IMG/VR virus record: IMGVR_UViG_3300045988_161114
Coordinates: 120,640-184,639 of that record
From: a virus
Direction: 5' to 3' (one strand)
DNA length: 64,000 nucleotides
Each line of letters starts with the position of its first letter. Positions within the stretch are counted from its first letter, which is position 1. The position numbers and the translations under genes were made by a program. Positions 11,501-61,383 of this stretch are shown here, one piece after another. The notes under the pieces are model-generated. The model was not told the origin of the DNA, searched no databases, and worked only from the letters and a program-made list of their open reading frames with translations.

Positions 11501-11857
11501 AGAGCTACAGGTCTGGCTTTGTCTCGTATGGGGTTTGGCTCATACATGCAAAACCTTAATGGTGTGATCTATTCCTCTATTGATGGAACCGAAGAGGAAA
11601 TCAAAGATTATGTAGATGCTACAATGTCTATTGGTCGTACATTTGATGACTTCTTCAAAGTGGTTGAGTCTCGTGGTACTAAGCACTCTACTGCTCCCAA
11701 AGCCAGCATCTACGGAGCAATAGGTATGTTCTTTGAAGCTGCCGAGAAAGCTGCCAAATCATTGAAAGCTATCCAAGCAATCAATGTGTTTGCTGAGCGT
11801 GAGGCCTCTTCAACTGTTGAGGAACAAGCTTCAGCCTTGAATGACATGGGCTTCTAA
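8507..11857 (+). CDS. Single-chain two-barrel RNA polymerase-like protein (YonO / RdRP-like class), paralogue 1
   Basis: 1116 aa. VLRIPPMLALSNQDDFDGDRATVFF (DFDGD at nt 10847-10861) matches the beta-prime NADFDGD metal loop and the strand before it. The upstream ENHAKGVAAFIG resembles the beta RHGNKGV motif. Confidence 0.75.
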   Translation: MANTINTINFFASLPEDRQTAIKEVANQLVSAIGTVATNEHRDVKISVHGVEIAMRIKSVSRKGKAFVTFVKGRNNGAALQLMGALKLVEGRNYAVNRVLCSGYESFVNKFFMLNKETTIVEKKKEVTFRKEIITSAEAFFGFVVKLSSDSKNKIEDILDAMRQRPGLRYAPVSHIMPRAQLAQYRIPGWEIETGELDSMNLSPDINSKLASIGAFSQGAVDSMAAVFDNDMTYSINDSTKSIARFGLNPSEHKSVSIGVKKVAVIVGVDMPEGYNRLNDSIYTSIVGGAIHANKNEYLKYGAVRVISENHAKGVAAFIGDEFEAAAKELGVQYITGKLKSKSVGLGYNLVSNGKSLKEFIIDLYNDAEFRAEVNNTLASFVKEVKIGGLVYKVIIINEELHVTSFYSLEGWEYTEKFLNKQEDIKSHASIDEAEFELLGVEQIDEDSLSEEEIETLNASSVMKLFIESIKTNPDFKVGEELLNMKREGLITKSKKVGRISLLTLDSIKDQFGEEALKSFLEANIDNSYLVESSIMTKDLSPRIYEEGEIKFILKELFDDSIAYAGNGTLKAGNFKSYGKDKQMISNTIDRLLNGDSSIGWVGLTNTGFTIEFAGYDFVFPAWGKLKGQIILPNEDDLSEGLIGGKLVGTLMSIYQMIKFQNNKGAVLTYAKHMLTLEQLFLGSRITKMRMSNNANMILVPQTKDLVNVYTTNKTVRKGIQEDGQLGYIKYPELMLQSFKLVSAKSDTPFWTSSEEYSIFDILEESVLRIPPMLALSNQDDFDGDRATVFFAKGLDGYDTWTTEHTLGKDNLIGAYQAAYVADEEESLLKGLDVINDSTIKCYPVEEFQSGVEKLVKAKQDTGKYTNALVQSIPLFEAMTALKDGLSKEEARIAIASMGVAVQNGAISQMKHENRGYSLIDMMYLFSASERNAHDDSISLADAWEEAIESTVGNKEMARRISTIIAEKAPRIIEHSNMVKLGKVYSEGEYDYYNHFGTRATGLALSRMGFGSYMQNLNGVIYSSIDGTEEEIKDYVDATMSIGRTFDDFFKVVESRGTKHSTAPKASIYGAIGMFFEAAEKAAKSLKAIQAINVFAEREASSTVEEQASALNDMGF

Positions 11858-11882
11858 GACTCCGTACCAACAAAAGAACAAA

Positions 11883-11937
11883 GACACTACCGCTCCGTTA
11901 CAAATTACTGTAGCGGAAAAGTAGTGTCGATTCTTTT
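11883..11937 (+). terminator. Conserved stem-loop element, copy 1 (long-stem variant)
   Basis: gacactaccgct...agcgg...gtagtgtc, then GATTCTTTT. Lies right after the RNAP-like gene. Confidence 0.5.
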
Positions 11938-11998
11938 GTGAGAACTTACTAAGGTTTCTAGTGAGATCATTAGTATGTACACTGTTTATTTAAAAGTG

Positions 11999-12030
11999 CC
12001 GGCACTCTTAAGGGTGAGTGTCGACACTTT
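11999..12030 (+). repeat. Conserved stem-loop element, copy 2 (degenerate, no T-tract)
   Basis: cgggcactc / gagtgtcg arms with one bulged G. Confidence 0.35.
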
Positions 12031-12062
12031 AATGATTATTTTGTTAACCCTTGGAGAGTATT

Positions 12063-12401
12063 ATGAACTACAACAAATTATTGAAGAAAGACCTTATCGC
12101 GTTACTGGTGAAGAAAGAGTCTGAGGTACAGGCTCTGACTAACAAGGTTGAGGAACTGACCTTGGCTTTACAACGTAATACCGGTGTTATGGAACAACGA
12201 CCTTTGATTGAATCCAATGCTCGTGAAGAGGTTTTGACGTTCGTTCAGAAACGGGATTTGTTGTTCCGTTTCCAAAGGGCATTTGGTACCAAGTTGTATG
12301 ATACTAGAATCAGTACTAATGGTGCTGAATGGCGTAGGAAAGGGGGTACATATGATACTCCGTGGAATCCTATTACTGAAGATACTTTTACTGGTAGGTA
12401 A
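12063..12401 (+). CDS. Hypothetical protein
   Basis: ATG at 12063 after a TGGAG RBS. The ORF-track start is that TTG. Confidence 0.7.
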   Translation: MNYNKLLKKDLIALLVKKESEVQALTNKVEELTLALQRNTGVMEQRPLIESNAREEVLTFVQKRDLLFRFQRAFGTKLYDTRISTNGAEWRRKGGTYDTPWNPITEDTFTGR

Positions 12402-12411
12402 AGCACTAGAG

Positions 12412-12447
12412 ATCGGCGCATTAATATGTGTGTGTCGATTTCTTTTT
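12412..12447 (+). terminator. Conserved stem-loop element, copy 3
   Basis: atcggcgca / tgtgtcgat arms (two G.T pairs), tail TTCTTTTTGAGG. Confidence 0.55.
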
Positions 12448-12483
12448 GAGGTTTTATACCTTGTGTGAGTGTAAGTAACTTTA

Positions 12484-12526
12484 TCGGCACCTTAAGCTTT
12501 ACGGCTTTCGGTGTCGACTCTTTTTT
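12484..12526 (+). terminator. Conserved stem-loop element, copy 4
   Basis: tcggcac / gtgtcga arms, 20-nt loop, tail CTCTTTTTTGATA. Confidence 0.55.
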
Positions 12527-12554
12527 GATATTAACTTTTTTAATGGAGATTGCT

Positions 12555-12755
12555 ATGTTTGTTCCTCATGTCAACTTTGCCAACACTGAAGTCTTAACAG
12601 CATACTTTGAAGAAAATGATCCCTTTGTAGAGATTAAAGAATACCAAGGGTACGTTAAAGCAGTTGATACCGAAACCGGTGAACGTGCTTTTTGGGTTAA
12701 AGGTCTTAATGGATTCTTAACATTCGATAGCAGTAATGCATCTTATTGCTGCTAA
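12555..12755 (+). CDS. Hypothetical small protein
   Basis: ATG at 12555 after a GGAG RBS. The upstream part of the track ORF overlaps hairpin copy 4. Confidence 0.6.
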   Translation: MFVPHVNFANTEVLTAYFEENDPFVEIKEYQGYVKAVDTETGERAFWVKGLNGFLTFDSSNASYCC

Positions 12756-12761
12756 TATTGG

Positions 12762-12795
12762 AATCGGCATCTATTGTAGGTGTCGATTTCTTTTT
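12762..12795 (+). terminator. Conserved stem-loop element, copy 5
   Basis: aatcggcatct / aggtgtcgatt arms, loop attgt, tail TCTTTTTGATTA. Confidence 0.6.
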
Positions 12796-12834
12796 GATTA
12801 TTTTTTTAACTTTTATGGCTATAGGAGGCCCCAA

Positions 12835-13191
12835 ATGAAATACATCCCTACTAAAAACATGTTCCAAATTTGGAATAACCCTGAAGAACGCAAAAAATTT
12901 GAGGACGCAGCACATGATGAAGCTAAAGAAAACTTCATTGCTGAACTCAAAGAAGAGGGCTATAAATCTGTTGAAGAGTACAAAGACTACCTGCGCGGAT
13001 ATAGCAGTGCAGATCTGTTCCATGATGTACTCGAATACCGTGAAGAACGGGACAGAGAGGATGATTTATCTAACCATCCAGATATCAGCCCGGAACAAAG
13101 TTTCCGCCATATGGTTTCATGTTTTGAGCATATCATTAACATCGATATCCATAATGACATCATCGAACAGTTAGACAGATTAGGTAAATAA
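12835..13191 (+). CDS. Hypothetical acidic protein
   Basis: ATG at 12835 after an AGGAGG RBS. 118 aa. Confidence 0.7.
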   Translation: MKYIPTKNMFQIWNNPEERKKFEDAAHDEAKENFIAELKEEGYKSVEEYKDYLRGYSSADLFHDVLEYREERDREDDLSNHPDISPEQSFRHMVSCFEHIINIDIHNDIIEQLDRLGK

Positions 13192-13204
13192 CAATCTATA
13201 AGAG

Positions 13205-13232
13205 TCGGCACATAAAGTGTCGATTCTTTTTT
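13205..13232 (+). terminator. Conserved stem-loop element, copy 6
   Basis: tcggcac / gtgtcga arms, loop ataaa, tail TTCTTTTTTGAG. Confidence 0.6.
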
Positions 13233-13267
13233 GAGTAAAACCTTTTATACGGAGAAAGGAATCCAAA

Positions 13268-13501
13268 ATGTTTGTTGTAGACAAAAAGGACTTTGATGTC
13301 CAACTTAAAAACAAAATTCAGGAGTGTATTAATAATCCTGAATTACAAGATATTATGCATGCAGATAATGGTAATTCTGTTATCTGCGGCTTTGGATACG
13401 TACAAGTCATCAATACAGATGGCGATGTATTGTATCAAGTTAATCATACGGGGATGGATGTGGTAGCTGATATTCGTAAGATTTGCGGTATCACTTACTA
13501 A
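13268..13501 (+). CDS. Hypothetical protein
   Basis: 77 aa with a GGAGAAAGGA RBS. Confidence 0.7.
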   Translation: MFVVDKKDFDVQLKNKIQECINNPELQDIMHADNGNSVICGFGYVQVINTDGDVLYQVNHTGMDVVADIRKICGITY

Positions 13502-13511
13502 TACAGAAGAG

Positions 13512-13539
13512 TCGGCGCTTTTAGTGTCGATTCTTTTTT
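13512..13539 (+). terminator. Conserved stem-loop element, copy 7
   Basis: tcggcgct / agtgtcga arms, tail TTCTTTTTTGAAG. Confidence 0.6.
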
Positions 13540-13608
13540 GAAGAAAGTTGTTTTTCATAGGATTAGTGTCGACGGGGTCCCTTTTCTCCGCCTGCTCTTC
13601 GTAGTGAA

Positions 13609-13647
13609 AGTCGCCACACCTCCCTAGGGCAGTGTCGACTTCTTTTT
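13609..13647 (+). terminator. Conserved stem-loop element, copy 8
   Basis: agtcgccac / gtgtcgact arms (one C.T mismatch), tail TCTTTTTGATTA. An orphan GTGTCGAC half-site lies at 13566-13573. Confidence 0.5.
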
Positions 13648-13680
13648 GATTATTAACCATGTCTTAGAAAGGACAGCACC

Positions 13681-14058
13681 ATGAAAATCATTTTCTCACC
13701 TAAAGAAGTATCCGCCGCAAAAGAATTCAAATCTAAATTCTTTAGTCTGATTGAAAAGACCGCTGAAAAGGTTTGCATTGTAACCGGTAAAGATCCGAAA
13801 CTGGCTAAGACTAAAGCCAAAGAATTCTTGAATAAGGATATTGTTACAGTATCAAATGAAGAATCTGGTGCATCTATTGTTGAAGTAGATGAAAAATGGG
13901 TTACTGGTTTCATTGATAAATTTGGTGAAACTGTTTATGCTTGGATTGATGTTGGTTTCAATGTCATGGTATCCTGTTTACCATTGGCCAATATCGCATT
14001 CTTTAAGCAAAAAGAGCTTGGTGAACACATGAAACAGTTGAACAAAAAAGATTACTAA
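13681..14058 (+). CDS. Hypothetical protein
   Basis: 125 aa with a TAGAAAGGA RBS motif. Confidence 0.75.
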   Translation: MKIIFSPKEVSAAKEFKSKFFSLIEKTAEKVCIVTGKDPKLAKTKAKEFLNKDIVTVSNEESGASIVEVDEKWVTGFIDKFGETVYAWIDVGFNVMVSCLPLANIAFFKQKELGEHMKQLNKKDY

Positions 14059-14066
14059 TTTGAATC

Positions 14067-14108
14067 ATCGGCACTAGACAAATTAACGTTTAGTGTCGAT
14101 TTTTTATT
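14067..14108 (+). terminator. Conserved stem-loop element, copy 9
   Basis: atcggcacta / tagtgtcgat arms, 14-nt loop, tail TTTTTATTGAAAG. Confidence 0.6.
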
Positions 14109-14136
14109 GAAAGCCATCTAATAGAAAGGAAATGAT

Positions 14137-15072
14137 ATGGCCGACAAAGCAAAAGCTGCGAGAAAGCAGTTGCATAATATTGCAAACGGTATTAAGAATG
14201 CCGCGAAAGGTTATGCTGCTGCTATTGATCAGTCAGTTAAAAAACTCAATGAAGAAAAGGTTATCGCCGGCTTTATTGAGTACAAAACAGTAGCACACGA
14301 ATACATTAAAAATGGTGTACTCGATACGGATCCATACGATGTTATGGATGAAACTAAACCCGAAACCAAACTTGGCAATGTTGCCGATTCAATTTTCACC
14401 AATTACAAGGAAGCCATCATGAAAACCGTAAACGCTAAAAACTTCAAATCTCAACAAGTTCTGGACGCTGAAATGAAAGAAATCAGCAAACTGGACGAAT
14501 CCGGTGTACTGTTGCTGCACTCTGCTGTTGTGAAAGCCAACAAGGAATATATGGCCAACCAAAGCGAAGAAAACAAGGTACGTCTGTATGTTGAAGTTCG
14601 CAAATACATCCGTGCTGTTGCTCACTTTGGTACTAATGATATTACCGGTATCACTATTGCTCAAAGCAATATGGAAGCTGTGAATGAGGTTGCTTCTGAT
14701 ATTTTGTCAGAATTGAAGATGAATGTCAGCACTCATGAAGAAGCTGAAGCTATTGTAGAATCCGTTAAAGATTCTATTAAGCAAACTCCTGAAGCCGTTA
14801 AGAAAGGCTGGACAGGTTCTATTATGGTCGGCCTCACCAAGGTTGGCGGTCTGTTGTGGGACTTTGCCAAAGGTGTTGTATGCTATGTTTATAATGGCGC
14901 TAAGAAAGTAATTGGTTCCATTATCAAAGTATCTGCGCTGGCATTGTCTTGTATCATCGATCTGCTGGACGCCGCTACTACCAAAGACTTTGGTGCTAGT
15001 GGTGCCAAAGGCATCATCCGTAAAGGTATGGTTGCCATGACTAATGTCGAAGAAGAAGCTGTTGCAGCATGA
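14137..15072 (+). CDS. Hypothetical protein with hydrophobic C-terminal region
   Basis: 311 aa with a TAGAAAGGA RBS. Codon usage is less AT-biased than in neighbouring genes. Confidence 0.8.
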   Translation: MADKAKAARKQLHNIANGIKNAAKGYAAAIDQSVKKLNEEKVIAGFIEYKTVAHEYIKNGVLDTDPYDVMDETKPETKLGNVADSIFTNYKEAIMKTVNAKNFKSQQVLDAEMKEISKLDESGVLLLHSAVVKANKEYMANQSEENKVRLYVEVRKYIRAVAHFGTNDITGITIAQSNMEAVNEVASDILSELKMNVSTHEEAEAIVESVKDSIKQTPEAVKKGWTGSIMVGLTKVGGLLWDFAKGVVCYVYNGAKKVIGSIIKVSALALSCIIDLLDAATTKDFGASGAKGIIRKGMVAMTNVEEEAVAA

Positions 15073-15341
15073 TATATGCAGACGCTTCTGAAGTTGGCAA
15101 AGGTGTATTCTTAATTGGATACATCTCTGCTAACAATAGCAAAAGGGCTTATAAGCGCATTAAAGCAAAAGACAATAATGTTGCAGAAAGAGCCGCAATT
15201 GAATTTGCTTTACAGAATAGCGATGGGGAAGTTGTTGCTAGTGACAGTTTAAACAATGTTACTGGTATTAATAACCCACAGGTTGTGTTTGTTCCTCGTA
15301 GCAATAACTTGGCAGACCTGTACATCAAAAGCTGTAAATAG
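15069..15341 (+). CDS. Small RNase H-fold (RVT_3-like) protein
   Basis: 90 aa. YADAS...AERAAIEFAL...ASDSL...VFVPRSNNLADLY follows the D-E-D-D pattern of RNase H-like domains. Confidence 0.55.
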   Translation: MIYADASEVGKGVFLIGYISANNSKRAYKRIKAKDNNVAERAAIEFALQNSDGEVVASDSLNNVTGINNPQVVFVPRSNNLADLYIKSCK

Positions 15342-15349
15342 AAATAAAG

Positions 15350-15386
15350 ATCGACACTCCATCATAGTGAGTGTCGATTTTTTATT
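15350..15386 (+). terminator. Conserved stem-loop element, copy 10
   Basis: atcgacactc / gagtgtcgat form a perfect 10-bp stem, tail TTTTTTATTGAGG. Confidence 0.6.
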
Positions 15387-15454
15387 GAGGATAATGTTGT
15401 CCTCATTAACGGGTATTCGCCCACTTTTATTCTATTTTAAAAAAGGATCTTAAA

Positions 15455-16894
15455 ATGAACCAACAAGCAAACTTTGAAATCAACCCAGCTCGCATCATCT
15501 CTGTTGTACGCAACAACCCTGAAGACTTCCATGAAGTATCCGGTACTGTATACATGCCACGTCCTGAAAATCGTCGTGTGATTTACAGCATCAACCGCCG
15601 CGATACTGATAACGGTCCGGTATTCAGTGTTTACCGTACTCAGAATGTAATGGTGCCTGCGCCTTACAGCAATACCCGTAATGCCCGTGCTACCGGTTGG
15701 GTTATGGCAAATGCCGATGACCATTGGTCTGTAGCACAAAAAGGTGCTGTTGACTTTGTTAACACTCCTGTTGGTGACCATAACCACTGGGCAATGGAAA
15801 CAGCTCTGAAAAGCGATGTTTTCAATGCAATGTCAGTACAAGGTCAATGGACTTATACTTTTGTATGTCCGTCCGATGCAGTAAAACAGTCAGAGTATGA
15901 CGTTATCAACCGTAATGCTTTGGCCATTTTGGGTTTGCAGTCTCAAAAAGAAAACCTGTCTACAATGAACAGCCAATATGTTCACAATACCGGTGAAATC
16001 CGTACTATTGAAAAGGCAATGAATGTTAATGCCATCAATCAGCGTATGGAAGAACTGTACAAAGAATATTTGGTTCAAGTTGCTAAACTGGTCAAAGAAG
16101 AAAAACTGTTTAAAGGTGTAGCGATTTATGCTAACCGCGACACCCTTTTACCGATCGCATTGCCAGAACTTGGTGCTGGTTACGGTCGTGTTGGTAGCAC
16201 AGCAAAAGACTTGTGGGAAAACACTTTGTTCCCTGCAAGCCGCGTAATTGCTGGTTTATTTATGGTAGGTAAAGCAACAGTCAATATGGCTGATGTTGAT
16301 CCTTTGCATTCTGACTTCACCTGCGGTATTCAAGTTACCCAAAACAGCGAGACACAATATACTCGCCGCATTGTTGAAGTAACTAATCCTCAAGGTAATA
16401 AGATTGCAATCCGTACTACTTTGTATGATAACAATCGTGGCAATAGCAATAGCCGTCCTGAAGCCTTTGAACGTGGTATCACTAGCAATCCTGCTATTAT
16501 TTACCAAGCCGGTAACCGTGTAACTATGGAAAGCCGTATTCAAGGTCAAGGACAGCCCTGGGTTACTGTACCGAATATCGTGATTTCCGAATACATCTTC
16601 GACCGCGCTGGTAGTGGTGTTGCCGCTCCTGTCGTATCAGAAGACTTCGATATGTTTGCTGCTCCTGTAGCGACTGTTGAAGAAGTTGAAGAAATCGATA
16701 TCAACAAGATCGAAACAGTAAGCTCTGAAGCTCCGAAAGAGCAAACAGGTGTACAAGCAGCACGTGCACGTCGTTTGGCTCGTGGTACTAAACAGGCTGC
16801 TGAAGAAAAAGAATCAACCCAAACAGTTGATGAATTGCTCTCCGGCGCTGATGGTACTGTAGATCAAGGTGAACAAGAAGAACCTGCTGCTTAA
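15455..16894 (+). CDS. Abundant-looking protein of unknown function with acidic C-terminal tail
   Basis: 479 aa. Flanked by strong hairpins. Codon usage is the least AT-biased in the window. Tail: ...DGTVDQGEQEEPAA. Confidence 0.85.
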   Translation: MNQQANFEINPARIISVVRNNPEDFHEVSGTVYMPRPENRRVIYSINRRDTDNGPVFSVYRTQNVMVPAPYSNTRNARATGWVMANADDHWSVAQKGAVDFVNTPVGDHNHWAMETALKSDVFNAMSVQGQWTYTFVCPSDAVKQSEYDVINRNALAILGLQSQKENLSTMNSQYVHNTGEIRTIEKAMNVNAINQRMEELYKEYLVQVAKLVKEEKLFKGVAIYANRDTLLPIALPELGAGYGRVGSTAKDLWENTLFPASRVIAGLFMVGKATVNMADVDPLHSDFTCGIQVTQNSETQYTRRIVEVTNPQGNKIAIRTTLYDNNRGNSNSRPEAFERGITSNPAIIYQAGNRVTMESRIQGQGQPWVTVPNIVISEYIFDRAGSGVAAPVVSEDFDMFAAPVATVEEVEEIDINKIETVSSEAPKEQTGVQAARARRLARGTKQAAEEKESTQTVDELLSGADGTVDQGEQEEPAA

Positions 16895-16909
16895 TGTAGT
16901 AAAAGAAAA

Positions 16910-16938
16910 GGTCCCACTTTTAGGAGTGGGATCTTTTT
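16910..16938 (+). terminator. Rho-independent terminator
   Basis: ggtcccact / agtgggatc stem followed by TTTTT. Confidence 0.7.
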
Positions 16939-16968
16939 ATGATTAAATTCTTGTTGGAGGTAATAAAA

Positions 16969-17310
16969 ATGGATATTAAAGATATCAATGTTGGCCAAAT
17001 CGTTGTAGATAAATTCGGGAATGAATACGAAGTTATCGACACTGATATATCCCAGTGTATTGCAAAATTGAAATGCACCAAGTTTGTAACAGAAAGTCGT
17101 ACAGATCCTGTTTTTAAATTTGACAGGCTCGGTAAAGTACTTTGGGTTGGTTCAAATGGTGTATATCCAGGATATGATGTTACCTCAGATATTCTTATTC
17201 AAACGTTAAAATTAAAGGTCGGCAATAAAAATTCGGATAACGAACTTGAAGAGCTTAAAAAGCGAGTAGAGCGTTTAGAGAAATTAGTTGGCGTAACTAA
17301 TTTGAGTTAA
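16969..17310 (+). CDS. Hypothetical protein (DKFGN-repeat family, paralogue of 40222..40869)
   Basis: ATG at 16969 after a GGAGG RBS. MDIKDINVGQIVVDKFGNEYEV... aligns with MKLEDIKIGQFLKDKFGNRYKV.... Confidence 0.7.
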   Translation: MDIKDINVGQIVVDKFGNEYEVIDTDISQCIAKLKCTKFVTESRTDPVFKFDRLGKVLWVGSNGVYPGYDVTSDILIQTLKLKVGNKNSDNELEELKKRVERLEKLVGVTNLS

Positions 17311-17446
17311 CAATCATAAAAGAGTATGATTTTATATCATTTCTTATGGCTATTATTGTTATACTATCAACAATAGGAATATTGTATATATTAGAGGCGG
17401 TAATAACTTTATTATTTAAGTTTCTTTTTTGTGTAGAGGTGTTGAT

Positions 17447-17707
17447 ATGTTTGTATTTGGAAGTGTTTGGGATTACTTGCTATATAATTCAATTGTAAAT
17501 AATCCTATCGGATTGTTATACATAATTGGGTTGGTAGTATATACAGCGCTTATAGTAGTTAATCTATCCGCCGCCGTTGATAAGATTAAGTGGTTTAAGA
17601 AACGACAAAATAGTCAAATCTTTATCACAATACTAATACTAATCTCTATTGTATTAGGACATATAGCAACTGTATTAACAGGTAAGCTAATTTCTGTCCT
17701 GATATAG
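17447..17707 (+). CDS. Small membrane protein
   Basis: ATG at 17447 after a GAGGTG RBS. Has two or three hydrophobic segments. Confidence 0.6.
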   Translation: MFVFGSVWDYLLYNSIVNNPIGLLYIIGLVVYTALIVVNLSAAVDKIKWFKKRQNSQIFITILILISIVLGHIATVLTGKLISVLI

Positions 17708-18990
17708 AAAGCAATACAATACGGGGCGAGCGTAAGCGAGCCACTTTACCAATAAAGATTACAACAATACAGTGTCTATTATTTTTTGAGCATAAAAGAT
17801 ACTGGCTGCGATTTTATATATCGTTGTATACATATATATAAGTGAATTAAAAGCAATAGAAGAATAAATAGTATGTTTATATATAAGGTACAATACAGGT
17901 ATATATAACAGTAATACAATAGATAGATAAATAGCACATGTCCGGCGCGGCATGTGTTGTAATAAGTACAGTTATGAATAGTACAGATACGACAAAATTA
18001 CCGAATACTATAGATAAGTATACGGCGGGCGCTCCTATTTAAAGGATTCGTTAAAAAATTAAGTTGTTCACTAAGTGTATATACCAATAAATACAATAAG
18101 AAATAGTATATTACTAGGGATTATATCAAGCATACTGTATATGCTAATACCCACCGTGACCACACGATGTCGCTGGGGACGTAACCTTACAGCTTCACAG
18201 CCCAATTCAGGAACCAAGCATTGCTTATATAGTACACTTATTAGATATAAAACGCCGCTAATAAGTATAATACCTCTGTAGTGTATAAATAAATATACAT
18301 TGACAAAGAACCCTTTAAAAAGAATACAACAAGCACTGATGCGATACAGGAAATATAGAATAAGAAAAGGGATAAATTCTAATATATGTATGCCTTTCCA
18401 TGCACTTAAGGAGTTTATAGTCTCTCCAGTAGGACTACTCTCTAACAATATATATAAGTATAGTATATATAGTATAAGAATGCAATCCCTTAATTTTAAA
18501 ATTGTACTGATATCAGTTGTAGATGTAATTATTTTGACATCTAAAGCCACAGAGTGGCTTGTATTGTATCATCTTTTTGATCGCTGTACCAGGTACATGT
18601 ATCTTAAACTTCTTTAATTGGTATTTAGTATATAAGGAATACACTAAGTGTATTCAGTATTAAAAGTATATTTAGAATTTTAAAATATAGATTACATTTC
18701 ATAGTATTAAATAATTATATAAATTGCTGTAGTGTATTCTTATATATGTATATATGTGTATATGGTATTGTTTTATTGTATTAGGGCTATTTGTTAATAG
18801 CCTTTATTGTATTTTTATTTATTTATTCTTATATAGGTGTTTTTTATTATGATTAGTGTAGATTTAATTGTTGCTTTATTGTTTTATGTTTGTTCTATTT
18901 TTATTGTATATTTTATTTTATGTACAATTGATCAATAGAGAAATAAGTGGCGCGGGTATATGTATATATCACTGTAGTGCTTTATTTAAA
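17708..18990. other. AT-rich ORF-poor region with inverted iteron-like repeats (candidate replication origin or genome landmark)
   Basis: Only low-complexity ORFs on both strands. ATACAATA-type motifs occur on the plus strand at about 17.71, 17.91 and 18.09 kb. The reverse complement TATTGTAT occurs at about 18.78, 18.81 and 18.90 kb. CTGTAGTG(T/C) occurs three times. Small GC-rich islands are present. Confidence 0.4.
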
Positions 18991-19017
18991 TATCGACTTT
19001 AGTGTCGATATTTTATT
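18991..19017 (+). terminator. Conserved stem-loop element, copy 11
   Basis: tatcgac / gtcgata arms, tail TTTTATTGAT. Confidence 0.5.
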
Positions 19018-19045
19018 GATTTATTTTTATTAGTTTGGAGTAATT

Positions 19046-19168
19046 ATGCCACTATTTATTGAGTTAGTTCAAATTCTTTTAATTGTTATTGTTCTTTTTT
19101 GCATATTTTGTATGATTATCTTGACTTGTATTATTATTAAAAGTTTATATGATATTTATTTTAAATAA
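19046..19168 (+). CDS. Very small hydrophobic peptide (40 aa)
   Basis: GGAG RBS. Sequence: MPLFIELVQILLIVIVLFCIFCMIILTCIIIK.... Below the ORF-track cutoff. Confidence 0.45.
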   Translation: MPLFIELVQILLIVIVLFCIFCMIILTCIIIKSLYDIYFK

Positions 19169-19197
19169 CAAGAATATATTTGAATGGCAATATATAA

Positions 19198-19225
19198 GGT
19201 CGGCACAATAGTGTCGACTTTTTAT
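19198..19225 (+). terminator. Conserved stem-loop element, copy 12
   Basis: gtcggcac / gtgtcgac arms, loop aata, tail TTTTTATTGATTA. Confidence 0.6.
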
Positions 19226-19341
19226 TGATTAAATTTTATCCTGCGGGTCTATTATGATTAAGTTCATAGAAAATATGACATTGAATCAATACATGAAATT
19301 CTATGTCTTCCTTATTTTATTAATCTAAGAAAGGGTTAATT

Positions 19342-19455
19342 ATGGGACTTGAAACAGCTATTACAGTATACATGTCTGTACTGTTTGTCATCATGTTTTT
19401 AGGATGGTTAGCATTTACTGTCCTGGAAGGTTTTTTATTACAAAAGAAAGGATAA
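19342..19455 (+). CDS. Very small hydrophobic peptide (37 aa)
   Basis: AAGGG RBS. Sequence: MGLETAITVYMSVLFVIMFLGWLAFTVLEGFLLQKKG. Confidence 0.45.
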   Translation: MGLETAITVYMSVLFVIMFLGWLAFTVLEGFLLQKKG

Positions 19456-19458
19456 GTC

Positions 19459-19821
19459 ATGATTGGGCTTATTGTATTTGGATCACTAGTGACTAGTGTT
19501 GCCATTATTTCTATTTTGGCTAAGGCATCGCCGAAATTATTAAAACGTGTATTGGGATATGAAGCCTATGTTGATTTAGCATTTTCATTGCTGATTGGTA
19601 TGGCTTGCGGTTTTTCTGGTACTATGTCCGGTTTCGTAATTGGTGCAGCTACTGGTCTGATTTTTGGTGTTACTCTTTTTATTCTTGCGCGGGTTTATGG
19701 TTATGCTTGTTATGAAAAGCAGGAAGATGGTACCTATAAATGGGTTGAATATGAACCCAAGTTCAAGATCTCCAATTGGCTGTCTAAATATACCAATAAA
19801 AATATTGGTAAGTTTGCATAA
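19459..19821 (+). CDS. Membrane protein
   Basis: 120 aa with three or four TM segments. Confidence 0.7.
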   Translation: MIGLIVFGSLVTSVAIISILAKASPKLLKRVLGYEAYVDLAFSLLIGMACGFSGTMSGFVIGAATGLIFGVTLFILARVYGYACYEKQEDGTYKWVEYEPKFKISNWLSKYTNKNIGKFA

Positions 19822-19884
19822 GGTTTCATCATGACATTTTATCTTTTGTATTTGTTTTTAATTTCCATCTTTTAAGGTGAAAGT

Positions 19885-20127
19885 ATGAAAAAGTATTTCA
19901 TTGGTGCATCAACTATTGCACTTGCTCGTCTGCTTTATAAGAAAGATGGTAATATCTCTCTTACTAAAGTTTGTGCTATTCTTGGCATTTCTGTTTTTGT
20001 TATTTTGTATGCCCCGGGCGTACTTGAATTTTTTGTAACATTAGCAGTATTAGCTGTTTTTGGCTATGTTGCTTTTGGTATTGTTAAAGCTGTTATGGAC
20101 GGCAGCTTGTCAAAAATTTCTAAATGA
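19885..20127 (+). CDS. Small membrane protein
   Basis: 80 aa with an AAGGTG RBS and two TM segments. Confidence 0.65.
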   Translation: MKKYFIGASTIALARLLYKKDGNISLTKVCAILGISVFVILYAPGVLEFFVTLAVLAVFGYVAFGIVKAVMDGSLSKISK

Positions 20128-20178
20128 TAATTTCTCATTAATGATATATCATTTATATTTTGATCTTAAAGTTTTTGG

Positions 20179-20206
20179 AAATCGACCTTAGTGTCGATTT
20201 CTTTTT
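20179..20206 (+). terminator. Conserved stem-loop element, copy 13
   Basis: aaatcgac / gtcgattt arms, tail CTTTTTGATTA. Confidence 0.55.
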
Positions 20207-20240
20207 GATTATTTTTATTTTAATAGAAAAGGATTTTGTT

Positions 20241-20456
20241 ATGCTTCCATTTGATTATAAAAAAGCTTTGAGTGGCCGTCATTTATGCAAGCTTAAGAAT
20301 GGTATGTATGCAATTTTATATGCCGATATAAGCAATGATCCTCGTATTCCTAATGAACATGAATCCCCTTTATTAGGTATCGTATTTAACCTTGATAAAG
20401 TGTCATATCCTCAGCATTGGACTCTTTCAGGTAGATTTAAAGTCAATAGTGATTAA
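20241..20456 (+). CDS. Hypothetical small protein
   Basis: ATG at 20241 after an AAAGGA RBS. The upstream part of the track ORF overlaps hairpin copy 13. Confidence 0.6.
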   Translation: MLPFDYKKALSGRHLCKLKNGMYAILYADISNDPRIPNEHESPLLGIVFNLDKVSYPQHWTLSGRFKVNSD

Positions 20457-20486
20457 AACATTATTGGAATTCTTGACCCCCATGAA

Positions 20487-20690
20487 TTGGACACTGTTGA
20501 TGCGATCAGAATTTTAAAAGAGGCTTGCAAATCTAAAATGCCGGTACAATGGGATGGCTGTCTAATTGATAAGCCTCTTACTGTTGAAGAAGTGTATCCT
20601 AGTGGAAATTTTAAGCTGTCTTTTGGTAAATGGGTATATAATACCGACGGAAGCGAACTTCCGAATATTCGTATTGTTCATAAGGAGTAA
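20487..20690 (+). CDS. Hypothetical small protein (TTG start, uncertain)
   Basis: 67-aa ORF whose only in-frame upstream start is a TTG. Confidence 0.4.
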   Translation: MDTVDAIRILKEACKSKMPVQWDGCLIDKPLTVEEVYPSGNFKLSFGKWVYNTDGSELPNIRIVHKE

Positions 20691-21162
20691 CTATGGTTGC
20701 ACGTCCCAATTTAAAAATTCCACTACTGACAGTGCTCTCATTGATTCTGAAAAAGTATCTGATGCTGGCGTTAAATCTGATCCTCGTGATGAATCAAATT
20801 TTGATAAACCTAAGGACGGTACATTTATTAAGCCTGAAATGATTGTTGATTTTCATGGCAAATATTTTGTTACAGATCGTGGAATACAGGTTTATGTAGA
20901 TGCCAGATATTGTCATCATAAATGGCGGTATGAAGGCAGCTCTATACAGAAAGGTAAAGAAAAATTTGACATTTGGGATGTTAATGGATATTCTCCTGAT
21001 TCTGGTACTATTGTTGGTTTTAGTGATAGCAGCAAATACAATGCAGCGCATTGGGATGTTCCTAAGCATTGGAAAGAATATACCGATTACCATAAAACTG
21101 ATTGGGAAGAAATTGGGTTTCTTGAACACAAGAAACGCCAAGAGCGTTACTCCATGAATTGA
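20566..21162 (+). CDS. Hypothetical protein, start codon unresolved
   Basis: The frame is open from 20566, but the plausible protein (..DSEKVSDAGVKSDPRDE...HKWRYEGSS...) has no ATG before 20839. A good RBS+ATG at 20694 is in another frame. Confidence 0.5.
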   Translation: MISLLLLKKCILVEILSCLLVNGYIIPTEANFRIFVLFIRSNYGCTSQFKNSTTDSALIDSEKVSDAGVKSDPRDESNFDKPKDGTFIKPEMIVDFHGKYFVTDRGIQVYVDARYCHHKWRYEGSSIQKGKEKFDIWDVNGYSPDSGTIVGFSDSSKYNAAHWDVPKHWKEYTDYHKTDWEEIGFLEHKKRQERYSMN

Positions 21163-21170
21163 TTATAAAA

Positions 21171-21199
21171 GTTGACACAATAGTGTCAACTTTTTTTTT
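21171..21199 (+). terminator. Conserved stem-loop element, copy 14
   Basis: gttgacac / gtgtcaac arms. A compensatory C>T / G>A change keeps the family stem paired. Loop aata, then T9. Confidence 0.65.
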
Positions 21200-21223
21200 G
21201 GTTAAAATATTTTGGAGTCTATC

Positions 21224-21727
21224 ATGGATTTAATTGAAACTATCAAAGAAATGAATAAAGAAATGGCTGAAAAGTTTCCTGAAATAAATTATGGAGGCTG
21301 CGGTAAATCATCTTTTACTTTGTTTAATCTTCTTTCAAAGATAAAAGGTGTATCAAATGTTGGCATATCAGTAACTTGGTATAGAGATAATCATGATTGC
21401 GGTTATAATAAAATTCGTAAAATAAAAATTACAGACGATAATGTTATGCGCTGTATCGATAGCCACGATTGGGATCATATTATGGTTAAATTCAAATATA
21501 ATGGAAAAGTTTATTATGTCGATCCATTAAGAATTGTTCATGTAAAAGATCTCAAATCTAATAATTTAAATGCTCATTATGGCACTGTCAATGCTAATAG
21601 TATTATATATATTATCCGTAAATCAGGCGTTATTTGGAATTGGATATGGACTTCTGTTAAAAAAGATAATGAAGCCCGTCTTGTTATGAAAAAGTATTTG
21701 AGACCACATTTTAAGAAAGGAAAATAA
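21224..21727 (+). CDS. Hypothetical protein
   Basis: ATG after a TGGAG RBS. 167 aa. Confidence 0.7.
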   Translation: MDLIETIKEMNKEMAEKFPEINYGGCGKSSFTLFNLLSKIKGVSNVGISVTWYRDNHDCGYNKIRKIKITDDNVMRCIDSHDWDHIMVKFKYNGKVYYVDPLRIVHVKDLKSNNLNAHYGTVNANSIIYIIRKSGVIWNWIWTSVKKDNEARLVMKKYLRPHFKKGK

Positions 21728-21728
21728 A

Positions 21729-22154
21729 ATGTCACCAGAAAAGTTTAATTTCTTTTATCGGACTAATATCAAGTCCTATGAAAGATTTCTATCGACTATC
21801 AAGTTGAGCAATAAAATATTTGCTCAGCAAGAAAAAGCTTTGAATAAAGTATACTTTAGTCCTGCAAACTTTTTATACCCTAAATTATGGTTTAATTATT
21901 CTTTAAGTAATGATCTTTACTTTTTGAATAATGGTTTGTATTTTGAATCTCTGAAAATGATCGAATATTTTGGAATTAGTGATGATAATCCTATTCCAAA
22001 ATGTGACTTGAAAGCATTTATGCTTAGTGAGAACATTTCAAAGAATGCTAAAGGACGTATGCGTCACTTTTATGATATTCTTTGCCGCATTCATAATGAA
22101 ATTCAAAGATTTAAATCTTTTAAATTTGATTGCTATCCAGAATCCTGGTTCTGA
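21729..22154 (+). CDS. Hypothetical protein
   Basis: 141 aa. Starts 1 nt after the upstream stop. Confidence 0.7.
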   Translation: MSPEKFNFFYRTNIKSYERFLSTIKLSNKIFAQQEKALNKVYFSPANFLYPKLWFNYSLSNDLYFLNNGLYFESLKMIEYFGISDDNPIPKCDLKAFMLSENISKNAKGRMRHFYDILCRIHNEIQRFKSFKFDCYPESWF

Positions 22155-22164
22155 TTTAAAAATG

Positions 22165-22192
22165 TTCGGCACATTAGTGTCGAATATTTTTT
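22165..22192 (+). terminator. Conserved stem-loop element, copy 15
   Basis: ttcggcac / gtgtcgaa arms, loop atta, tail TATTTTTTGATTA. Confidence 0.6.
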
Positions 22193-22221
22193 GATTAAAA
22201 TCATTTTATTTGGAGTATGGT

Positions 22222-22533
22222 ATGTCTAGTTTTAAAAAGTTTGCAGTAGAATCATTGATTCCTGCTGTTATTACTGGTGTTTTTGCCATTGCTATTTTGG
22301 GTTTGCTTTTCTATTGGGCTTTAAATGCTACGCCGCGCCCGAAAGATAAAAAAGACAATCCAGTAAAACTTGAAAAAGTTGAAAAGCCTTTAACTGGAGT
22401 AAAGAACCATTTTTCTATTGATGGTTATAAATTCACTTCAACAAATGTTTGCATTGATGGTAAACAAATTCTTTTTGTACAGCAATTTGCAAAAGATTTT
22501 GTTGTACTTAACCTTAATGAACCCTGTAAATAA
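22222..22533 (+). CDS. Membrane-anchored protein
   Basis: ATG after a TGGAG RBS. N-terminal TM helix. Confidence 0.65.
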   Translation: MSSFKKFAVESLIPAVITGVFAIAILGLLFYWALNATPRPKDKKDNPVKLEKVEKPLTGVKNHFSIDGYKFTSTNVCIDGKQILFVQQFAKDFVVLNLNEPCK

Positions 22534-22545
22534 CGGAGACTTTAA

Positions 22546-22881
22546 ATGAAAAAATTGGCTATCGTAATTGCCGCATCTTTCGTATTAACTGCCTGTAACC
22601 CTTTTAAAGGCGAAACAAATAATCGTATGTATATCAATTCAAATTATTGGATTGAATCATATGTTGATCATGATAAAACTGTCTATCAAGAATGTGTAAA
22701 TGATATGGTTCCCGGCAAAGAGGCAAAAGCTTTGTGCCGCCCAATTGACAAATCTCATTTTGAAGATATGCAATATCAGCATATTAATCACTCTATTGAG
22801 ATGTCTAAAGCTGTAGATCGCAAAAATGATCGTGCAATTACAGCATTGGAACAATTGCCTGATAAAAAGGCTTCTGAATAA
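22546..22881 (+). CDS. Lipoprotein
   Basis: Signal peptide MKKLAIVIAASFVLTAC with an L-T-A-C lipobox. Confidence 0.7.
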   Translation: MKKLAIVIAASFVLTACNPFKGETNNRMYINSNYWIESYVDHDKTVYQECVNDMVPGKEAKALCRPIDKSHFEDMQYQHINHSIEMSKAVDRKNDRAITALEQLPDKKASE

Positions 22882-22892
22882 AAGTTAAAAAT

Positions 22893-22924
22893 AATCGGCG
22901 CGATATTAGTGTCGATTATTTTTT
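22893..22924 (+). terminator. Conserved stem-loop element, copy 16
   Basis: aatcggcgc / agtgtcgatt arms (G.T pairs), tail ATTTTTTGATTA. Confidence 0.55.
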
Positions 22925-22949
22925 GATTAAATTTTTTGGAATTTTTATC

Positions 22950-24579: not shown

Positions 24580-24836
24580 TGCATTAAATTGCATAAATTG
24601 ACGTAAAAAGCAATCAAAATTTGTATGCATCTATTTATATCGGGTTTACATTCGGTATAAGTGGTGCATACAAAAACAAAACTTTGTAGAATATTGAAAT
24701 ATAAAGAAATATTCTTATGTAAAAGTTTATTAAGAAGTGTATGCAATTTAAATAGCTCAATAAGCATGTAGTCATGCATCGGGTATATCAAACGACTTTT
24801 TTAACTGGGCCAAAGCATATTTTGTGTACATTTCTT

Positions 24837-26958: not shown

Positions 26959-26993
26959 AGCCTAGCACTTATGTGTTAGGCTTTCTTGTTTTT
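26959..26993 (+). terminator. Rho-independent terminator
   Basis: agcctagcac / gtgttaggct stem (one G.T pair), then TTCTTGTTTTT. Confidence 0.65.
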
Positions 26994-30000: not shown

Positions 30001-30409
30001 TAAACATGTGTCAGGTGGAGCTAGCTCTCATGCTGTCTTCTACCTCAAAAACATGACAAAAGACGACAAGAGTGTTAAAAAGGTAATTAAAAGTATCGAG
30101 AATGACTTAGGTTATTCAAGAGAAGTTGCCGTTTCTATTTGTCGTATTGTAAATTGGGCAGTTAATACCAATGCACTTGAAATGTGTAATAAGTTTTTAC
30201 GCATGCACAATAAAGGTGCCCTAGTTGATCTAGGTGATGCGGATATTCAGATGTGGTTTAAACACATTGTTGATTATACGTTCTTTGGCAGTATGCTTGC
30301 ACCGATTTTTACCATTTATGGTCAAAGTCAAGGATTAATTCCTTTAGGCGAAAATGCAGAAAATAATGTGGCCGAAGTTATGGACACTTTTGACGCAATT
30401 GGTTTTTAA
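27023..30409 (+). CDS. Single-chain two-barrel RNA polymerase-like protein, paralogue 2
   Basis: 1128 aa. TSQTGLKGVTK...VDIVAGINSLKGKMNTIRLAQ resembles beta GRHGNKGVISK...VDIVLNPLGVPSRMNIGQ. About 440 aa later, LHCALISTEIVRRSHSDNDGDLLQI (DNDGD at nt 29540-29554) resembles the beta-prime NADFDGD loop. Confidence 0.75.
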   Translation: MYIRLKDIPVIDADATVAEVYEIYSKQLPQDPRLNWKLLQDRIAMEIVNEISEPTTIEIPKSFYDLKLNWPEFLFATKHIDSSSDIELMSHHELMFMMLYERLESLFKYDQLFTELIRKDINYVKNHVLYVTSNAYNAALKESSELVIISPYNEYSKVLTYLHQDKVMGDALPMLFNPSDRAIKTSALYFNVLPGSESMLAESNKIIISKNGKEFQAPGFQVFKDENGGFVGYSSLFKVGQSLPARFKTHLNGNAFGVSNPSKFIFLQDAIEKDGELITKDNTLVDAVMVYNDIELESYRLVGGEIEVSPKVGKEIVFTPRHIETEFDEIDVKVGQTIYSKGGYIKIGSRGGEAIYIEMVDHIQVTSIEESGYNGSARIDYIAYYKAGNARITSQTGLKGVTKTMRSCGKIKIHEDGKEDKIIDVDIVAGINSLKGKMNTIRLAQAAFAFKYGYYTNDKDYLDSLNEEEINAAVASLPTATYEKRIKRVDGYDDEIIVIENVKYGLVQYSYTELGSHFAKIKNQGMSFNCLKYICQTTDSSLGQYILDNCIDKSDKQIVEELAKILSDEGHVFEYADNYPSYTLIELKSMFNEQDLILSRSAIIPTSSKLLDPEFNKGFYIDLSKVRSGTSIRVPSAEILNKFCGKQNDGQYVYPTMLIELSKIIRAAIAGPSQYFTIAPHRNERNHKRPSAWNGYLNAIKSMLYRTELGGQTYVKSLIQPSLKGVNLKQVHDKYVPEGKVVILDRNILESIREYIYGKPNNKTTEEAMLDQFRPLNAFTLRNPFLWRSQMIISQLWGIDEFNDYLQENYGMTVNDYLDVQGNLHCALISTEIVRRSHSDNDGDLLQISSIPGIEQQEMMAQFKLEYFTEDQKQWDEDFLLSEYSSIEDVDWSKKYELYYVPIYPKHPGDNAYMEFLCSSAMAKNAVGPGTNDAWVFYMLVQLYYGLARDNDPKSYVPWERKRKVQLRIKEEDLFTYDHIYTMVLENRVINAIKHVSGGASSHAVFYLKNMTKDDKSVKKVIKSIENDLGYSREVAVSICRIVNWAVNTNALEMCNKFLRMHNKGALVDLGDADIQMWFKHIVDYTFFGSMLAPIFTIYGQSQGLIPLGENAENNVAEVMDTFDAIGF

Positions 30410-30419
30410 AGCATAAGAA

Positions 30420-30458
30420 AGAGAGGCACGAAAGTGTCTCTCTTTTTATTTTTTTATT
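30420..30458 (+). terminator. Rho-independent terminator
   Basis: agagaggcac / gtgtctctct stem, GAAA loop, then T-run. Confidence 0.8.
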
Positions 30459-60756: not shown

Positions 60757-60990
60757 TAGCTTAAATAACGTTCCTATAGTTGGGTATTGGTTTCGTTTCC
60801 TTTAACGATATCTGGTTATATGATTGCTATCTGTATTTTGATACAGATAGTGGACTGCACAAAAACAATCAAATGTACGAAAATGCAGATAATCGTACCT
60901 TATAATCAACTGAACCATTTCTTTTGATAGTTGATTTCTACTTTGTAGAGTAATGAGTATTCTAGTAGTATTCATTGCTATGTAAAATAT

Positions 60991-61068: not shown

Positions 61069-61077
61069 AAGATTTAT

Positions 61078-61214: not shown

Positions 61215-61226
61215 TCCCATTTAAAT

Positions 61227-61351: not shown

Positions 61352-61383
61352 AATTAAAATAGACACATATCCGAGGAATTTAA

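Follow-up and report, generated by a model that had tools for sequence, protein, structure and literature searches.

In this study, a repeated intergenic element was analysed in a 64-kb stretch of viral DNA (IMG/VR record IMGVR_UViG_3300045988_161114, positions 120,640 to 184,639; called the window below), which belongs to an uncharacterised human-associated phage of about 185 kb. Copies of the element, numbered E1 to E17, punctuate a block of small genes at 11.9–22.9 kb. The block lies next to the open reading frame (ORF) 8507–11857, which encodes a candidate RNA polymerase (RNAP), here named RNAP-A. The preferred reading, with a probability of about 0.52, is that the element is a hairpin/U-tract terminator fused to a promoter box of a phage polymerase, and that it is also a recombination junction for gene cassettes.

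Element family and its anatomy

The pattern GTGTCGA-N8(T-rich)-TGA had 15 exact matches in the window, all on the plus strand between 11924 and 22926. In shuffles of the window that preserved dinucleotides, matches averaged 0.04 and never exceeded 1. Two variants brought the family to 17 copies: one at 17772 (GTGTCTA-N8-TGA, without a 5' arm) and one at 21183 (GTGTCAA, a 9-nucleotide (nt) T-run and TGG), whose matching 5' arm TTGACAC is the compensatory double change that a preliminary description of this DNA had pointed out. A degenerate hairpin at 16907–16948, scoring about 18 bits with a covariance model, has lost the box. The preliminary description had reported sixteen copies of one element; the family was retained and the count was corrected.

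The covariance model was built from 12 element copies and searched on both strands of the window. The remaining copies inside the block were recovered, and no convincing match was found outside it (best 30418–30454, 19.7 bits, E-value 0.09). A narrower box pattern, scanned in contigs of 181.6 kb and 140.7 kb, matched in the block only. Genome-wide confinement was thus judged from the window, the flanks of relatives and this narrower scan. No Rfam family matched within 11.9–22.9 kb. Terminator-like hairpins elsewhere in the window had unrelated stems, three of them (26965, 30426 and 45997) sharing just a short GCAC...GTGT top with the family, and inspection of the other intergenic regions of the window by eye gave no second common motif. 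The elements are one sequence family, distinct from generic terminators, as the preliminary description had held; its statements on unrelated stems elsewhere and on confinement to one block were also borne out.

The element is asymmetric, with a linear 18-nt box of fixed sequence and spacing as its 3' half and a variable 5' arm (TCGGCAC, TCGGCGC, TCGGCAT and TCGACAC). The 5' arm lies 3–58 nt upstream of the 3' arm, with stems of about 7–14 bp and loops entirely variable in length and sequence. The 3' arm and TGA are always separated by 8 nt (9 in variant 21183). Information content ran from position −1 (A) across GTGTCGA, the T-rich octamer and TGA, was weak in the next three bases (tta) and was gone at about +20/+21. 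Of the tail TGA(T/G)TA proposed earlier, TGA was near-invariant and the following T/G-TA was found in a majority only. At least six T were present in the 8 nt (9 in 21183) after GTGTCGA in 15 of the 17 copies, the exceptions being E2, with three T, and E11, with a T-run but no stem. The 3' arm is under an extra sequence constraint that is absent from the 5' arm. Judged from these alignments, it is the linear 3' half, with its fixed register, that forms the conserved unit, and not the hairpin.

Sixteen copies folded as RNA hairpins, with −11 to −26 kcal/mol and z-scores of −2.3 to −7.8 (−4.5 or lower in 14). In the G.U pairs, G was nearly always in the 5' arm, and the plus strand folded better than the minus strand in most copies, which agreed with the wobble described earlier. 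On the template (minus) strand, the wobble pairs turn into A.C mismatches. Pairing statistics were taken from 51 distinct copies of the window and the genomes of relatives. Of the stem cells, 96% were paired. The central pair was G.U in 30 copies and A.U in 16, with a constant 3' U. Double-sided changes occurred at five pairs, and none of 500 shuffles reached the observed values. The stem commonly ran 2–5 bp into the T-tract through an A/G-rich 5' flank, and these outer pairs covaried. The pairing is strand-specific, as seen from the wobbles and the fold bias, and therefore acts in plus-sense RNA or plus-strand single-stranded DNA.

RNA processing or protein binding was considered, in which a phage or host factor would cleave or bind a long early transcript at the hairpins, giving stable monocistronic mRNAs (compare T7 RNase III sites and lambda boxB-type antitermination). 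The RNA-specific pairing, the conserved sequence in one arm and the location between cistrons fit this proposal. It was judged highly improbable. The stems, of 9–14 bp, are too short for RNase III, and RNase III sites were rejected for this reason. The loops are fully variable, so a loop-reading protein is unlikely. Conservation runs past the hairpin through the T-tract to TG(A/G) (TGR) at a fixed register, boxes without hairpins exist, and Rfam gave no match. The processing-site and antiterminator readings of the preliminary description were not favoured by any of the data.

The position of the elements relative to the genes was regular. The block has 17 intergenic gaps of 60 nt or more; an element was present in 13, and three of these held two. 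The earlier wording "nearly every gap" was somewhat overstated. The stem started 4–8 nt past the stop codon in nine copies and 17–49 nt past it in three others. The plus-sense RNA hairpin with a U-tract expected from the preliminary description was thus seen, 4–8 nt past the stop codon in most copies. TGR ended 22–37 nt upstream of the next start codon in most copies, and a Shine-Dalgarno sequence was the sole recognisable feature in between. In the tandem pairs E1/E2, E3/E4 and E7/E8, the first copy lay 5–17 nt past a stop codon and had good terminator features, and the second lay 26–31 nt ahead of a start codon. The second copies E2 and E8 had a degraded U-tract or stem and an intact box. 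The features of the array are as follows, with L-numbers for contigs of related phages.

E1, 11875..11941 (box 11924–11941), plus strand: long hairpin with an inner hairpin; GTGTCGA TTCTTTTG TGA; −26 kcal/mol, z −7.5; the stem begins 17 nt past the stop of the RNAP-A ORF, at the array start
E2, 11996..12035, plus strand: hairpin and box with a poor T-tract, GTGTCGA CACTTTAA TGA; 27.4 bits; TGA ends 27 nt before the ATG at 12063; kept in all close relatives
E3, 12408..12449 (box 12432–12449), plus strand: hairpin and box; extra-cassette junction in L051
E4, 12484..12528 (box 12511–12528), plus strand: hairpin with a structured 18-nt loop, and box; deletion junction in L049, L050 and L051
E5, 12760..12797 (box 12780–12797), plus strand: hairpin and box; deletion junction in L049 and L051
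E6, 13200..13234 (box 13217–13234), plus strand: hairpin and box; deletion junction in L050
E7, 13507..13541 (box 13524–13541), plus strand: hairpin and box
E8, 13608..13649 (box 13632–13649), plus strand: bulged weak hairpin and box; −11.9 kcal/mol, z −2.3; 33 bits; TGA ends 31 nt before the ATG at 13681; deletion junction in L049
E9, 14067..14110 (box 14093–14110), plus strand: hairpin and box; deletion junction in L049
E10, 15346..15388 (box 15371–15388), plus strand: hairpin and box, upstream of an ORF of 479 amino acids (aa)
Box-less hairpin terminator, 16907..16948, plus strand: after the 479-aa ORF; GGTCCCACT...AGTGGGATC, then TTTTTATGATTA; 18.2 bits; replacement junction in L049
E11, 17772..17789, plus strand: box only, GTGTCTA TTATTTTT TGA, without a 5' arm; starts a 1.3-kb AT-rich non-coding stretch; variant retained in L050/L042
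E12, 18988..19019 (box 19002–19019), plus strand: hairpin and box; replacement junction in L051 and L034
E13, 19196..19228 (box 19211–19228), plus strand: hairpin and box; replacement junction
E14, 20177..20208 (box 20191–20208), plus strand: hairpin and box; deletion/displacement junction in L051, L034 and L041
E15, 21167..21201, plus strand: compensated stem TTGACAC/GTGTCAA, 9-nt T-run, TGG; deletion junction in L051 and L034
E16, 22161..22194 (box 22177–22194), plus strand: hairpin and box
E17 (last copy), 22890..22926 (box 22909–22926), plus strand: hairpin and box; junction of an extra cassette of about 480 nt in L034 and L002

The genes of the block are ORFans. Twelve block proteins had no Pfam or PHROG match; the sole exception among the block proteins was a sub-threshold RNase H-like match of ORF 15069–15341. 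Short transcript-like contigs of the 479-aa gene were sought, and just contigs of at least 10 kb turned up.

The AT-rich stretch at 17708–19045 has a GC content down to 21%, short repeats of the TATATA type and no convincing plus-strand ORF. It opens with the hairpin-less box E11 and closes at E12, and the distant relatives L052 and L053 have a comparable gene-free gap at the same place. It may be a non-coding early transcript or an origin/terminus region. Three independent contigs, from relatives or from the same phage, stop at the equivalents of about 18.57–18.65 kb: L049 (181.6 kb), L050 (16.1 kb) and L059 (14.8 kb). The alignment of L034 begins at about 18.80 kb, 3 nt from the start of the L034 locus. 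The contig ends at about 18570–18800 suggest that the genome has a physical end or a terminal repeat boundary here, inside the small-gene block, or that the region is difficult to assemble.

Between E14 and E15 (20457–21162), the reading frames are broken, and ORFs 20487–20690, 20693–20842 and 20566/20839–21162 overlap in different frames. A gene that is decaying or has been frameshifted could explain this, as could a programmed shift; the segment is missing as a whole from L051 and L034. The GC content is 37–46% from the first DxDGD ORF (RNAP-A) to about 17 kb and 21–34% over 18.4–23.6 kb, and the two halves of the array therefore differ in composition.

Candidate polymerases, relatives and gene shuffling

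Two large ORFs of the window encode proteins with a DxDGD motif.

RNAP-A, 8507..11857, plus strand: 1116-aa DxDGD protein, candidate single-subunit two-barrel RNA polymerase
Second DxDGD ORF, 27023..30409, plus strand: 1128 aa, DNDGD at residue 840; distant RNAP-A paralogue

A library-wide profile search gave 41 distant homologs of RNAP-A. Residues D781, D783, G784 and D785 and upstream K/R residues were invariant across 33 homologs of 14–27% identity. An invariant DxDGD with basic residues is the signature expected of RNA polymerase double-psi beta-barrels, following the description in PMC7824862. The second ORF aligned with the RNAP-A profile over 163 columns around the motif (hhalign probability 84%, E-value 7e-6). 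The structure of RNAP-A was modelled by AlphaFold (AF2) with a 33-sequence alignment, which gave a predicted local distance difference test score (pLDDT) of 72.8 and a predicted template modelling score (pTM) of 0.75; a shallow alignment gave a pLDDT of 34. The best PDB matches of the model were P74-26 gp62/P23-45-type gp64 RNAP, poxvirus Rpo147 and bacterial beta', all with E-values above 0.05. Four BFVD matches with E-values of 1e-7 to 6e-5 were uncharacterised phage proteins, and weaker BFVD matches included crAss-like phage proteins, P23-45 and large-virus RNAP subunits. Neither ORF had a sequence match in Pfam or PHROG, or in the PDB, where single sequences and two profiles were used. Both ORFs were treated as candidate single-subunit two-barrel RNA polymerases, with support from the motif and, for RNAP-A, from the predicted fold. 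The connection to phage RNAPs drawn in the preliminary description is plausible to this extent: there are two distant DxDGD paralogues, the first with a predicted RNAP-like fold.

Hairpin terminators on the plus strand flank the second DxDGD ORF at 26959–26982 and 30416–30447. Their inner GCAC-loop-GTGT top includes a G.U wobble, as in the element family. The outer stems are different and have no TGA register. A third such hairpin is at 45997.

A search of the 50,697 phage records of INPHARED gave no DNA match for the block (megablast) and none for RNAP-A (tblastn). The homologs of RNAP-A formed about 49 clusters at 85–89% identity, on contigs of up to 186 kb. Further homologs, at 25–30% identity, formed a second tier on contigs of 90–185 kb from human metagenomes. 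The contig of the window itself, of 184,711 bp, is likewise from a human metagenome (PRJEB6997), and relatives are present in HMP samples. By these sequence relationships, the phage belongs to a large uncultured group of human-associated phages of about 180–185 kb.

The close relatives L049, L050, L051, L002, L041 and L034 had the same elements at orthologous places. The distant L052 and L053, with RNAP-A 25–30% identical, were syntenic for the intein gene, the lysozyme, the large DxDGD gene, the small genes and the non-coding gap. The syntenic intein gene is the minus-strand ORF 137–1525 of the window, with an intein/Hint splicing domain; gene and intein are kept in both. Copies of the form GTGTCGG-N8(T-rich)-TG[A/G] numbered eight in L052 and ten in L053. 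The final base of the heptamer had changed from A to G, and the 5' arms compensated for this with an initial C in place of T (CCGGCRC). The arms CTGATAC or TCGATAC of L052 also faced GTGTCGG, pairing by U.G wobbles. In the more distant L055, a box-less hairpin after the RNAP-A homolog was followed by three GTGTCGG boxes within 150 nt without 5' arms. L056 had a CCGGCAT...GTGTCGG hairpin and no T-tract, and L057 had no box.

Box and hairpin were thus found apart as well as together. Boxes without a hairpin were at 17772 in the window, at 20790 in L052 and in three places in L055. Terminators without a box were at 16907 in the window, at 18575 in L053 and in the separate hairpin after the L055 RNAP gene. 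From this comparison, the box is old and conserved as a linear sequence, in an array that always starts just downstream of the RNAP-A gene, and the hairpin and U-tract are its frequent but dispensable companions.

The block was aligned by BLAST to five close relatives. Changes between relatives were deletions, insertions, replacements and, in two relatives, one ORF in a different slot. About 14 of the 19 distinct synteny breakpoints were inside elements, which make up about 8% of the block. Several hybrid elements were found. At 10910 in L050, the E4 hairpin was joined to the sequence downstream of E6, with two genes missing; at 14852 in L049, the E8 hairpin was joined to the sequence downstream of E9, with one gene missing; and at 197 in L034, the E12 hairpin was joined to the downstream sequence of an E13-type copy. 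The elements are junctions of gene gain, loss and displacement among close relatives. The crossover point varied among the hybrids, in the core or past the spacer, and therefore homologous exchange over the shared 20–40 nt or so fits better than a fixed site-specific cut. No integrase or recombinase domain was found among the ORFs of the 64-kb window.

Recognition of the hairpin itself, with its central G.U/G.T wobble, was weighed against these data. The hairpin, recognised by the polymerase or another phage protein, would be a structured plus-strand signal either for initiation by a two-barrel RNAP or for attC-like single-strand recombination; this was considered very improbable, and initiation at a hairpin would be analogous to phage N4 with an unrelated enzyme family and the other strand. 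The narrower form of the proposal, in which the signal is single-stranded DNA, read as an N4-like promoter on the non-template strand by an injected two-barrel RNAP or used as an attC-like site, was the least probable of all the readings. Several facts agree with it: G.T wobbles are tolerated in DNA hairpins on the plus strand only, a crAss-like phage RNAP transcribes just denatured DNA in vitro, the hairpin of L056 is retained without a T-tract, and cassette junctions are inside elements. Against it, loops of up to 58 nt are unfavourable for extrusion, boxes occur without hairpins, and the crossover points differ as in homologous exchange. Integron attC sites were rejected on the lack of a recombinase in the window, the variable crossovers and the arms, TCGRCRC/GTGTCGA against the attC cores RYYYAAC/GTTRRRY. 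The N4-type hairpin promoter put forward in the preliminary description was rejected on the loop length (3–58 nt), on the strand, with A.C mismatches on the template strand, and on the hairpin-less boxes. A promoter role is likely for the linear box, not for an extruded hairpin, to judge from the conservation pattern.

Chi-like or iteron-like sites were also rejected. The motif is intergenic only, is in one block with a fixed TGA register and is common to phages of 33–47% GC.

Proposed terminator and promoter functions

In the preferred reading, the variable 5' arm (TCGRCRC with a few A/G-rich bases) would pair with GTGTCGA and the first bases of the T-tract in a hairpin of 9–14 bp, followed by U's, and the hairpin would end the upstream transcript 4–8 nt past the stop codon. 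Termination is suggested by this anatomy. The promoter of the next gene would be the linear 18-nt box GTGTCG(A/G)–8 T-rich nt–TG(A/G). GTGTCGR would be the recognition element, at about −16 to −10, and the T-rich stretch the melting region; initiation would take place at the G/A of TGR and give leaders of about 22–37 nt. The box would most likely be read by the two-barrel RNA polymerase of the phage itself, from the adjoining upstream ORF 8507–11857.

A promoter of this form would bring a GC-rich half-stem beside a T-run, and any complementary upstream 7-mer would turn it into a terminator. Terminators may have arisen repeatedly in this way, by evolution of an arm complementary to the promoter heptamer. 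The heterogeneity of the 5' arms would be expected because any such 7-mer makes a terminator next to the promoter box. With such an origin of terminators from promoters, the asymmetry, the uncoupled cases, the tandem pairs and the heterogeneity of arms and loops would all be explained. The common 20–40 nt or so ending every unit would allow recombination between copies to delete, insert, replace and move cassettes.

A sequence-specific terminator class is the main rival. Here the hairpin, the U-tract and GTGTCGR...TGR would only stop the phage polymerase or the host RNAP, and the downstream genes would be expressed by read-through from a single promoter upstream or by antitermination. The hairpin and U-tract lie right past stop codons in the same direction as the genes, the T-tract is conserved, and the virion RNAP of P23-45 has seven termination sites with a common 26-nt motif, all of which agree with a terminator class. 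As the whole explanation it was nevertheless considered unlikely. The box is still present at sites whose hairpin or T-tract has been degraded or is missing (E2, E8, E11, L052 20790 and L055), and generic box-less terminators are used in the same block. Hairpin termination has no need of an invariant 3' arm against a free 5' arm, or of TGR at a fixed 8 nt past the stem; these features and the boxes surviving without hairpins are left unexplained by a terminator alone. Seventeen terminators in series would also leave the distal genes almost silent. Re-initiation would therefore be needed, and nothing else is conserved before the start codons.

Re-initiation by the host RNAP was considered as well. 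The element would then be a cassette like the promoter-early stem-loops (PeSLs) of T4-type phages, with the box as an activator or alternative-sigma site at about −30 and a weak (extended) −10 after TGA, as in T4 MotA middle promoters. TAnnnT was present at +19 in 21 of 52 close-clade copies, so that box and hexamer are 12 nt apart; the sequence TGnTAGAAT is present in several L052 copies; and middle-promoter versions of PeSLs exist in T4-type phages. This cassette was judged clearly improbable, since there is no −35 hexamer, TAnnnT is missing from L053 and from most copies in the first half of the block, information content vanishes past about +20, the start would fall at the start codon or just 8–20 nt or so before it, and no sigma or MotA-like protein was found in the window.

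Sigma-70-like sites in the region were at chance level (79 found, 75 expected). A sigma-70 promoter with TTGA as −35 was rejected, with no −10 at 16–18 nt and a start at or beyond the start codon.

Several points weigh against the fusion of terminator and phage-polymerase promoter. The link between box and RNAP-A is by association, and RNAP-A is identified by its motif and weak structural matches, without sequence matches. The box could instead be read by the second DxDGD protein or by the host RNAP together with a phage factor. The stems often consume the first 3–5 bases of the T-tract and leave 3–5 U's unpaired, and therefore termination may be weak. The hairpin-less boxes could be decayed remnants instead of promoter-only sites. 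Four gaps of at least 60 nt have no element, so some genes of the block have none upstream. By analogy with the sequence-specific terminator motif of P23-45, the box could also be a termination signal.

Other features of the window and comparison with known systems

Between the small-gene block and the second DxDGD ORF, a permuted two-piece tmRNA gene was found at 24796–25251 on the plus strand (RF04321, 115.8 bits; RF01849, 104.8 bits). The tag peptide given by ARAGORN was ANDDVYMVRAAA*. Nucleotide and RNA-repair functions are frequent at 30–58 kb. They include thymidylate synthase, a PNKP phosphatase domain, two RNA ligase families, a cyclic-phosphate processing receiver domain, a NAMPT-like protein, domains like phosphoribosyl pyrophosphate (PRPP) synthetase and a full RNase H. 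The product of ORF 35939–37414 (plus strand) is a YadA-like trimeric autotransporter adhesin, with domains for the head, the stalk and the membrane anchor, a hint that the host is Gram-negative.

A group I intron (RF00028, 83.6 bits) is at 58814–59052 on the plus strand, in the gap between ORF 58122–58763 and the ORF of a protein with a Ro60 vWA domain (59179–60756). The latter is followed by tRNA-Pro and tRNA-Arg, the whole region extending over 59179–63128. Two unusually long tRNA-like matches of 122–124 nt, at 61227–61348 and 62339–62462, may be tRNAs with introns, or else partners of the Ro60-like protein that resemble Y RNA.

The promoters of YonO-like and other single-subunit two-barrel phage RNAPs are almost unknown. 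The paper on YonO leaves its promoter open, and no motif was found for the early transcripts of crAss-like gp66. The box is a sharply defined 18-nt candidate promoter with many natural variants, adjoins a candidate polymerase gene and can be tested in vitro. If the promoter reading is true, the element shows the conversion of a promoter into a terminator by evolution of a complementary upstream arm.

The element resembles an intrinsic terminator in its GC-containing RNA hairpin with a U-rich tract at once after it, past stop codons and in the direction of the genes. It differs in having one sequence-invariant arm, a fixed register to TGR and a distribution limited to one block. In T7, the first class II/III promoters are in tandem just after gene 1, with about 18–20 bp, a recognition part, an AT-rich melting part and a purine start. 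E1 and E2 are similarly in tandem just after ORF 8507–11857, and the box would have the same three-part layout. The polymerase family is a different one, and T7 promoters are not fused to hairpins. The N4 virion-RNAP promoters are hairpins with a stem of 5–7 bp and a loop of 3 nt, and they are extruded on the template strand. N4 has in common with the present phage a small conserved hairpin upstream of early genes and polymerases of its own (candidates here). In the present elements, however, the loops are 3–58 nt instead of 3, the hairpin is favoured on the non-template/RNA strand, and boxes without hairpins occur.

For the transcription machinery, the closest parallel by analogy is found in the Thermus phage P23-45. 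Its two single-subunit two-barrel RNAPs are divergent and use a promoter motif each, and its pre-early region contains a terminator motif of 26 nt that is conserved (PMC10770324). Both phages have two very divergent DxDxD polymerases (candidates here), a class-specific short motif upstream of many small early genes and a conserved (here putative) terminator motif in one early block, the motifs being compared by description. In the PDB, P74-26 gp62/P23-45-type gp64 RNAP was also the structure that matched the RNAP-A model best. P23-45 is described with separate promoter and terminator motifs, whereas one element seems to hold both here. There is no detectable protein sequence similarity, and the present candidate polymerase is not fused to a tape measure.

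The PeSLs of T4-type phages (Arbiol et al. 2010, PMC2839356; Comeau et al. 2014, PMC4122927) are the closest functional parallel by analogy. In these phages, composite stem-loop/promoter cassettes mediate gene shuffling (PMC4122927). In both systems, composite terminator/promoter motifs, the promoter part being putative here, are between small ORFan genes of a plastic region. The stem-loop is immediately upstream of the (here predicted) promoter, the stems are alike within a genome, and indel, replacement and ORF-displacement junctions of close relatives lie in the motifs. In the present element, however, there is no sigma-70 −35/N17/−10 arrangement, the TAnnnT at a fixed offset being limited to the 21 of 52 copies and absent from the distant clades, and the box overlaps the 3' arm and U-tract, whereas the PeSL promoter follows the hairpin. 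PeSL stems differ between phage pairs, while the present box is nearly unchanged at 25–30% identity of the RNAP-like protein. The present genome is not T4-like and has no INPHARED matches. The element would thus extend the PeSL idea, in which regulatory cassettes act as engines of gene shuffling, beyond T4-type phages and host-type promoters.

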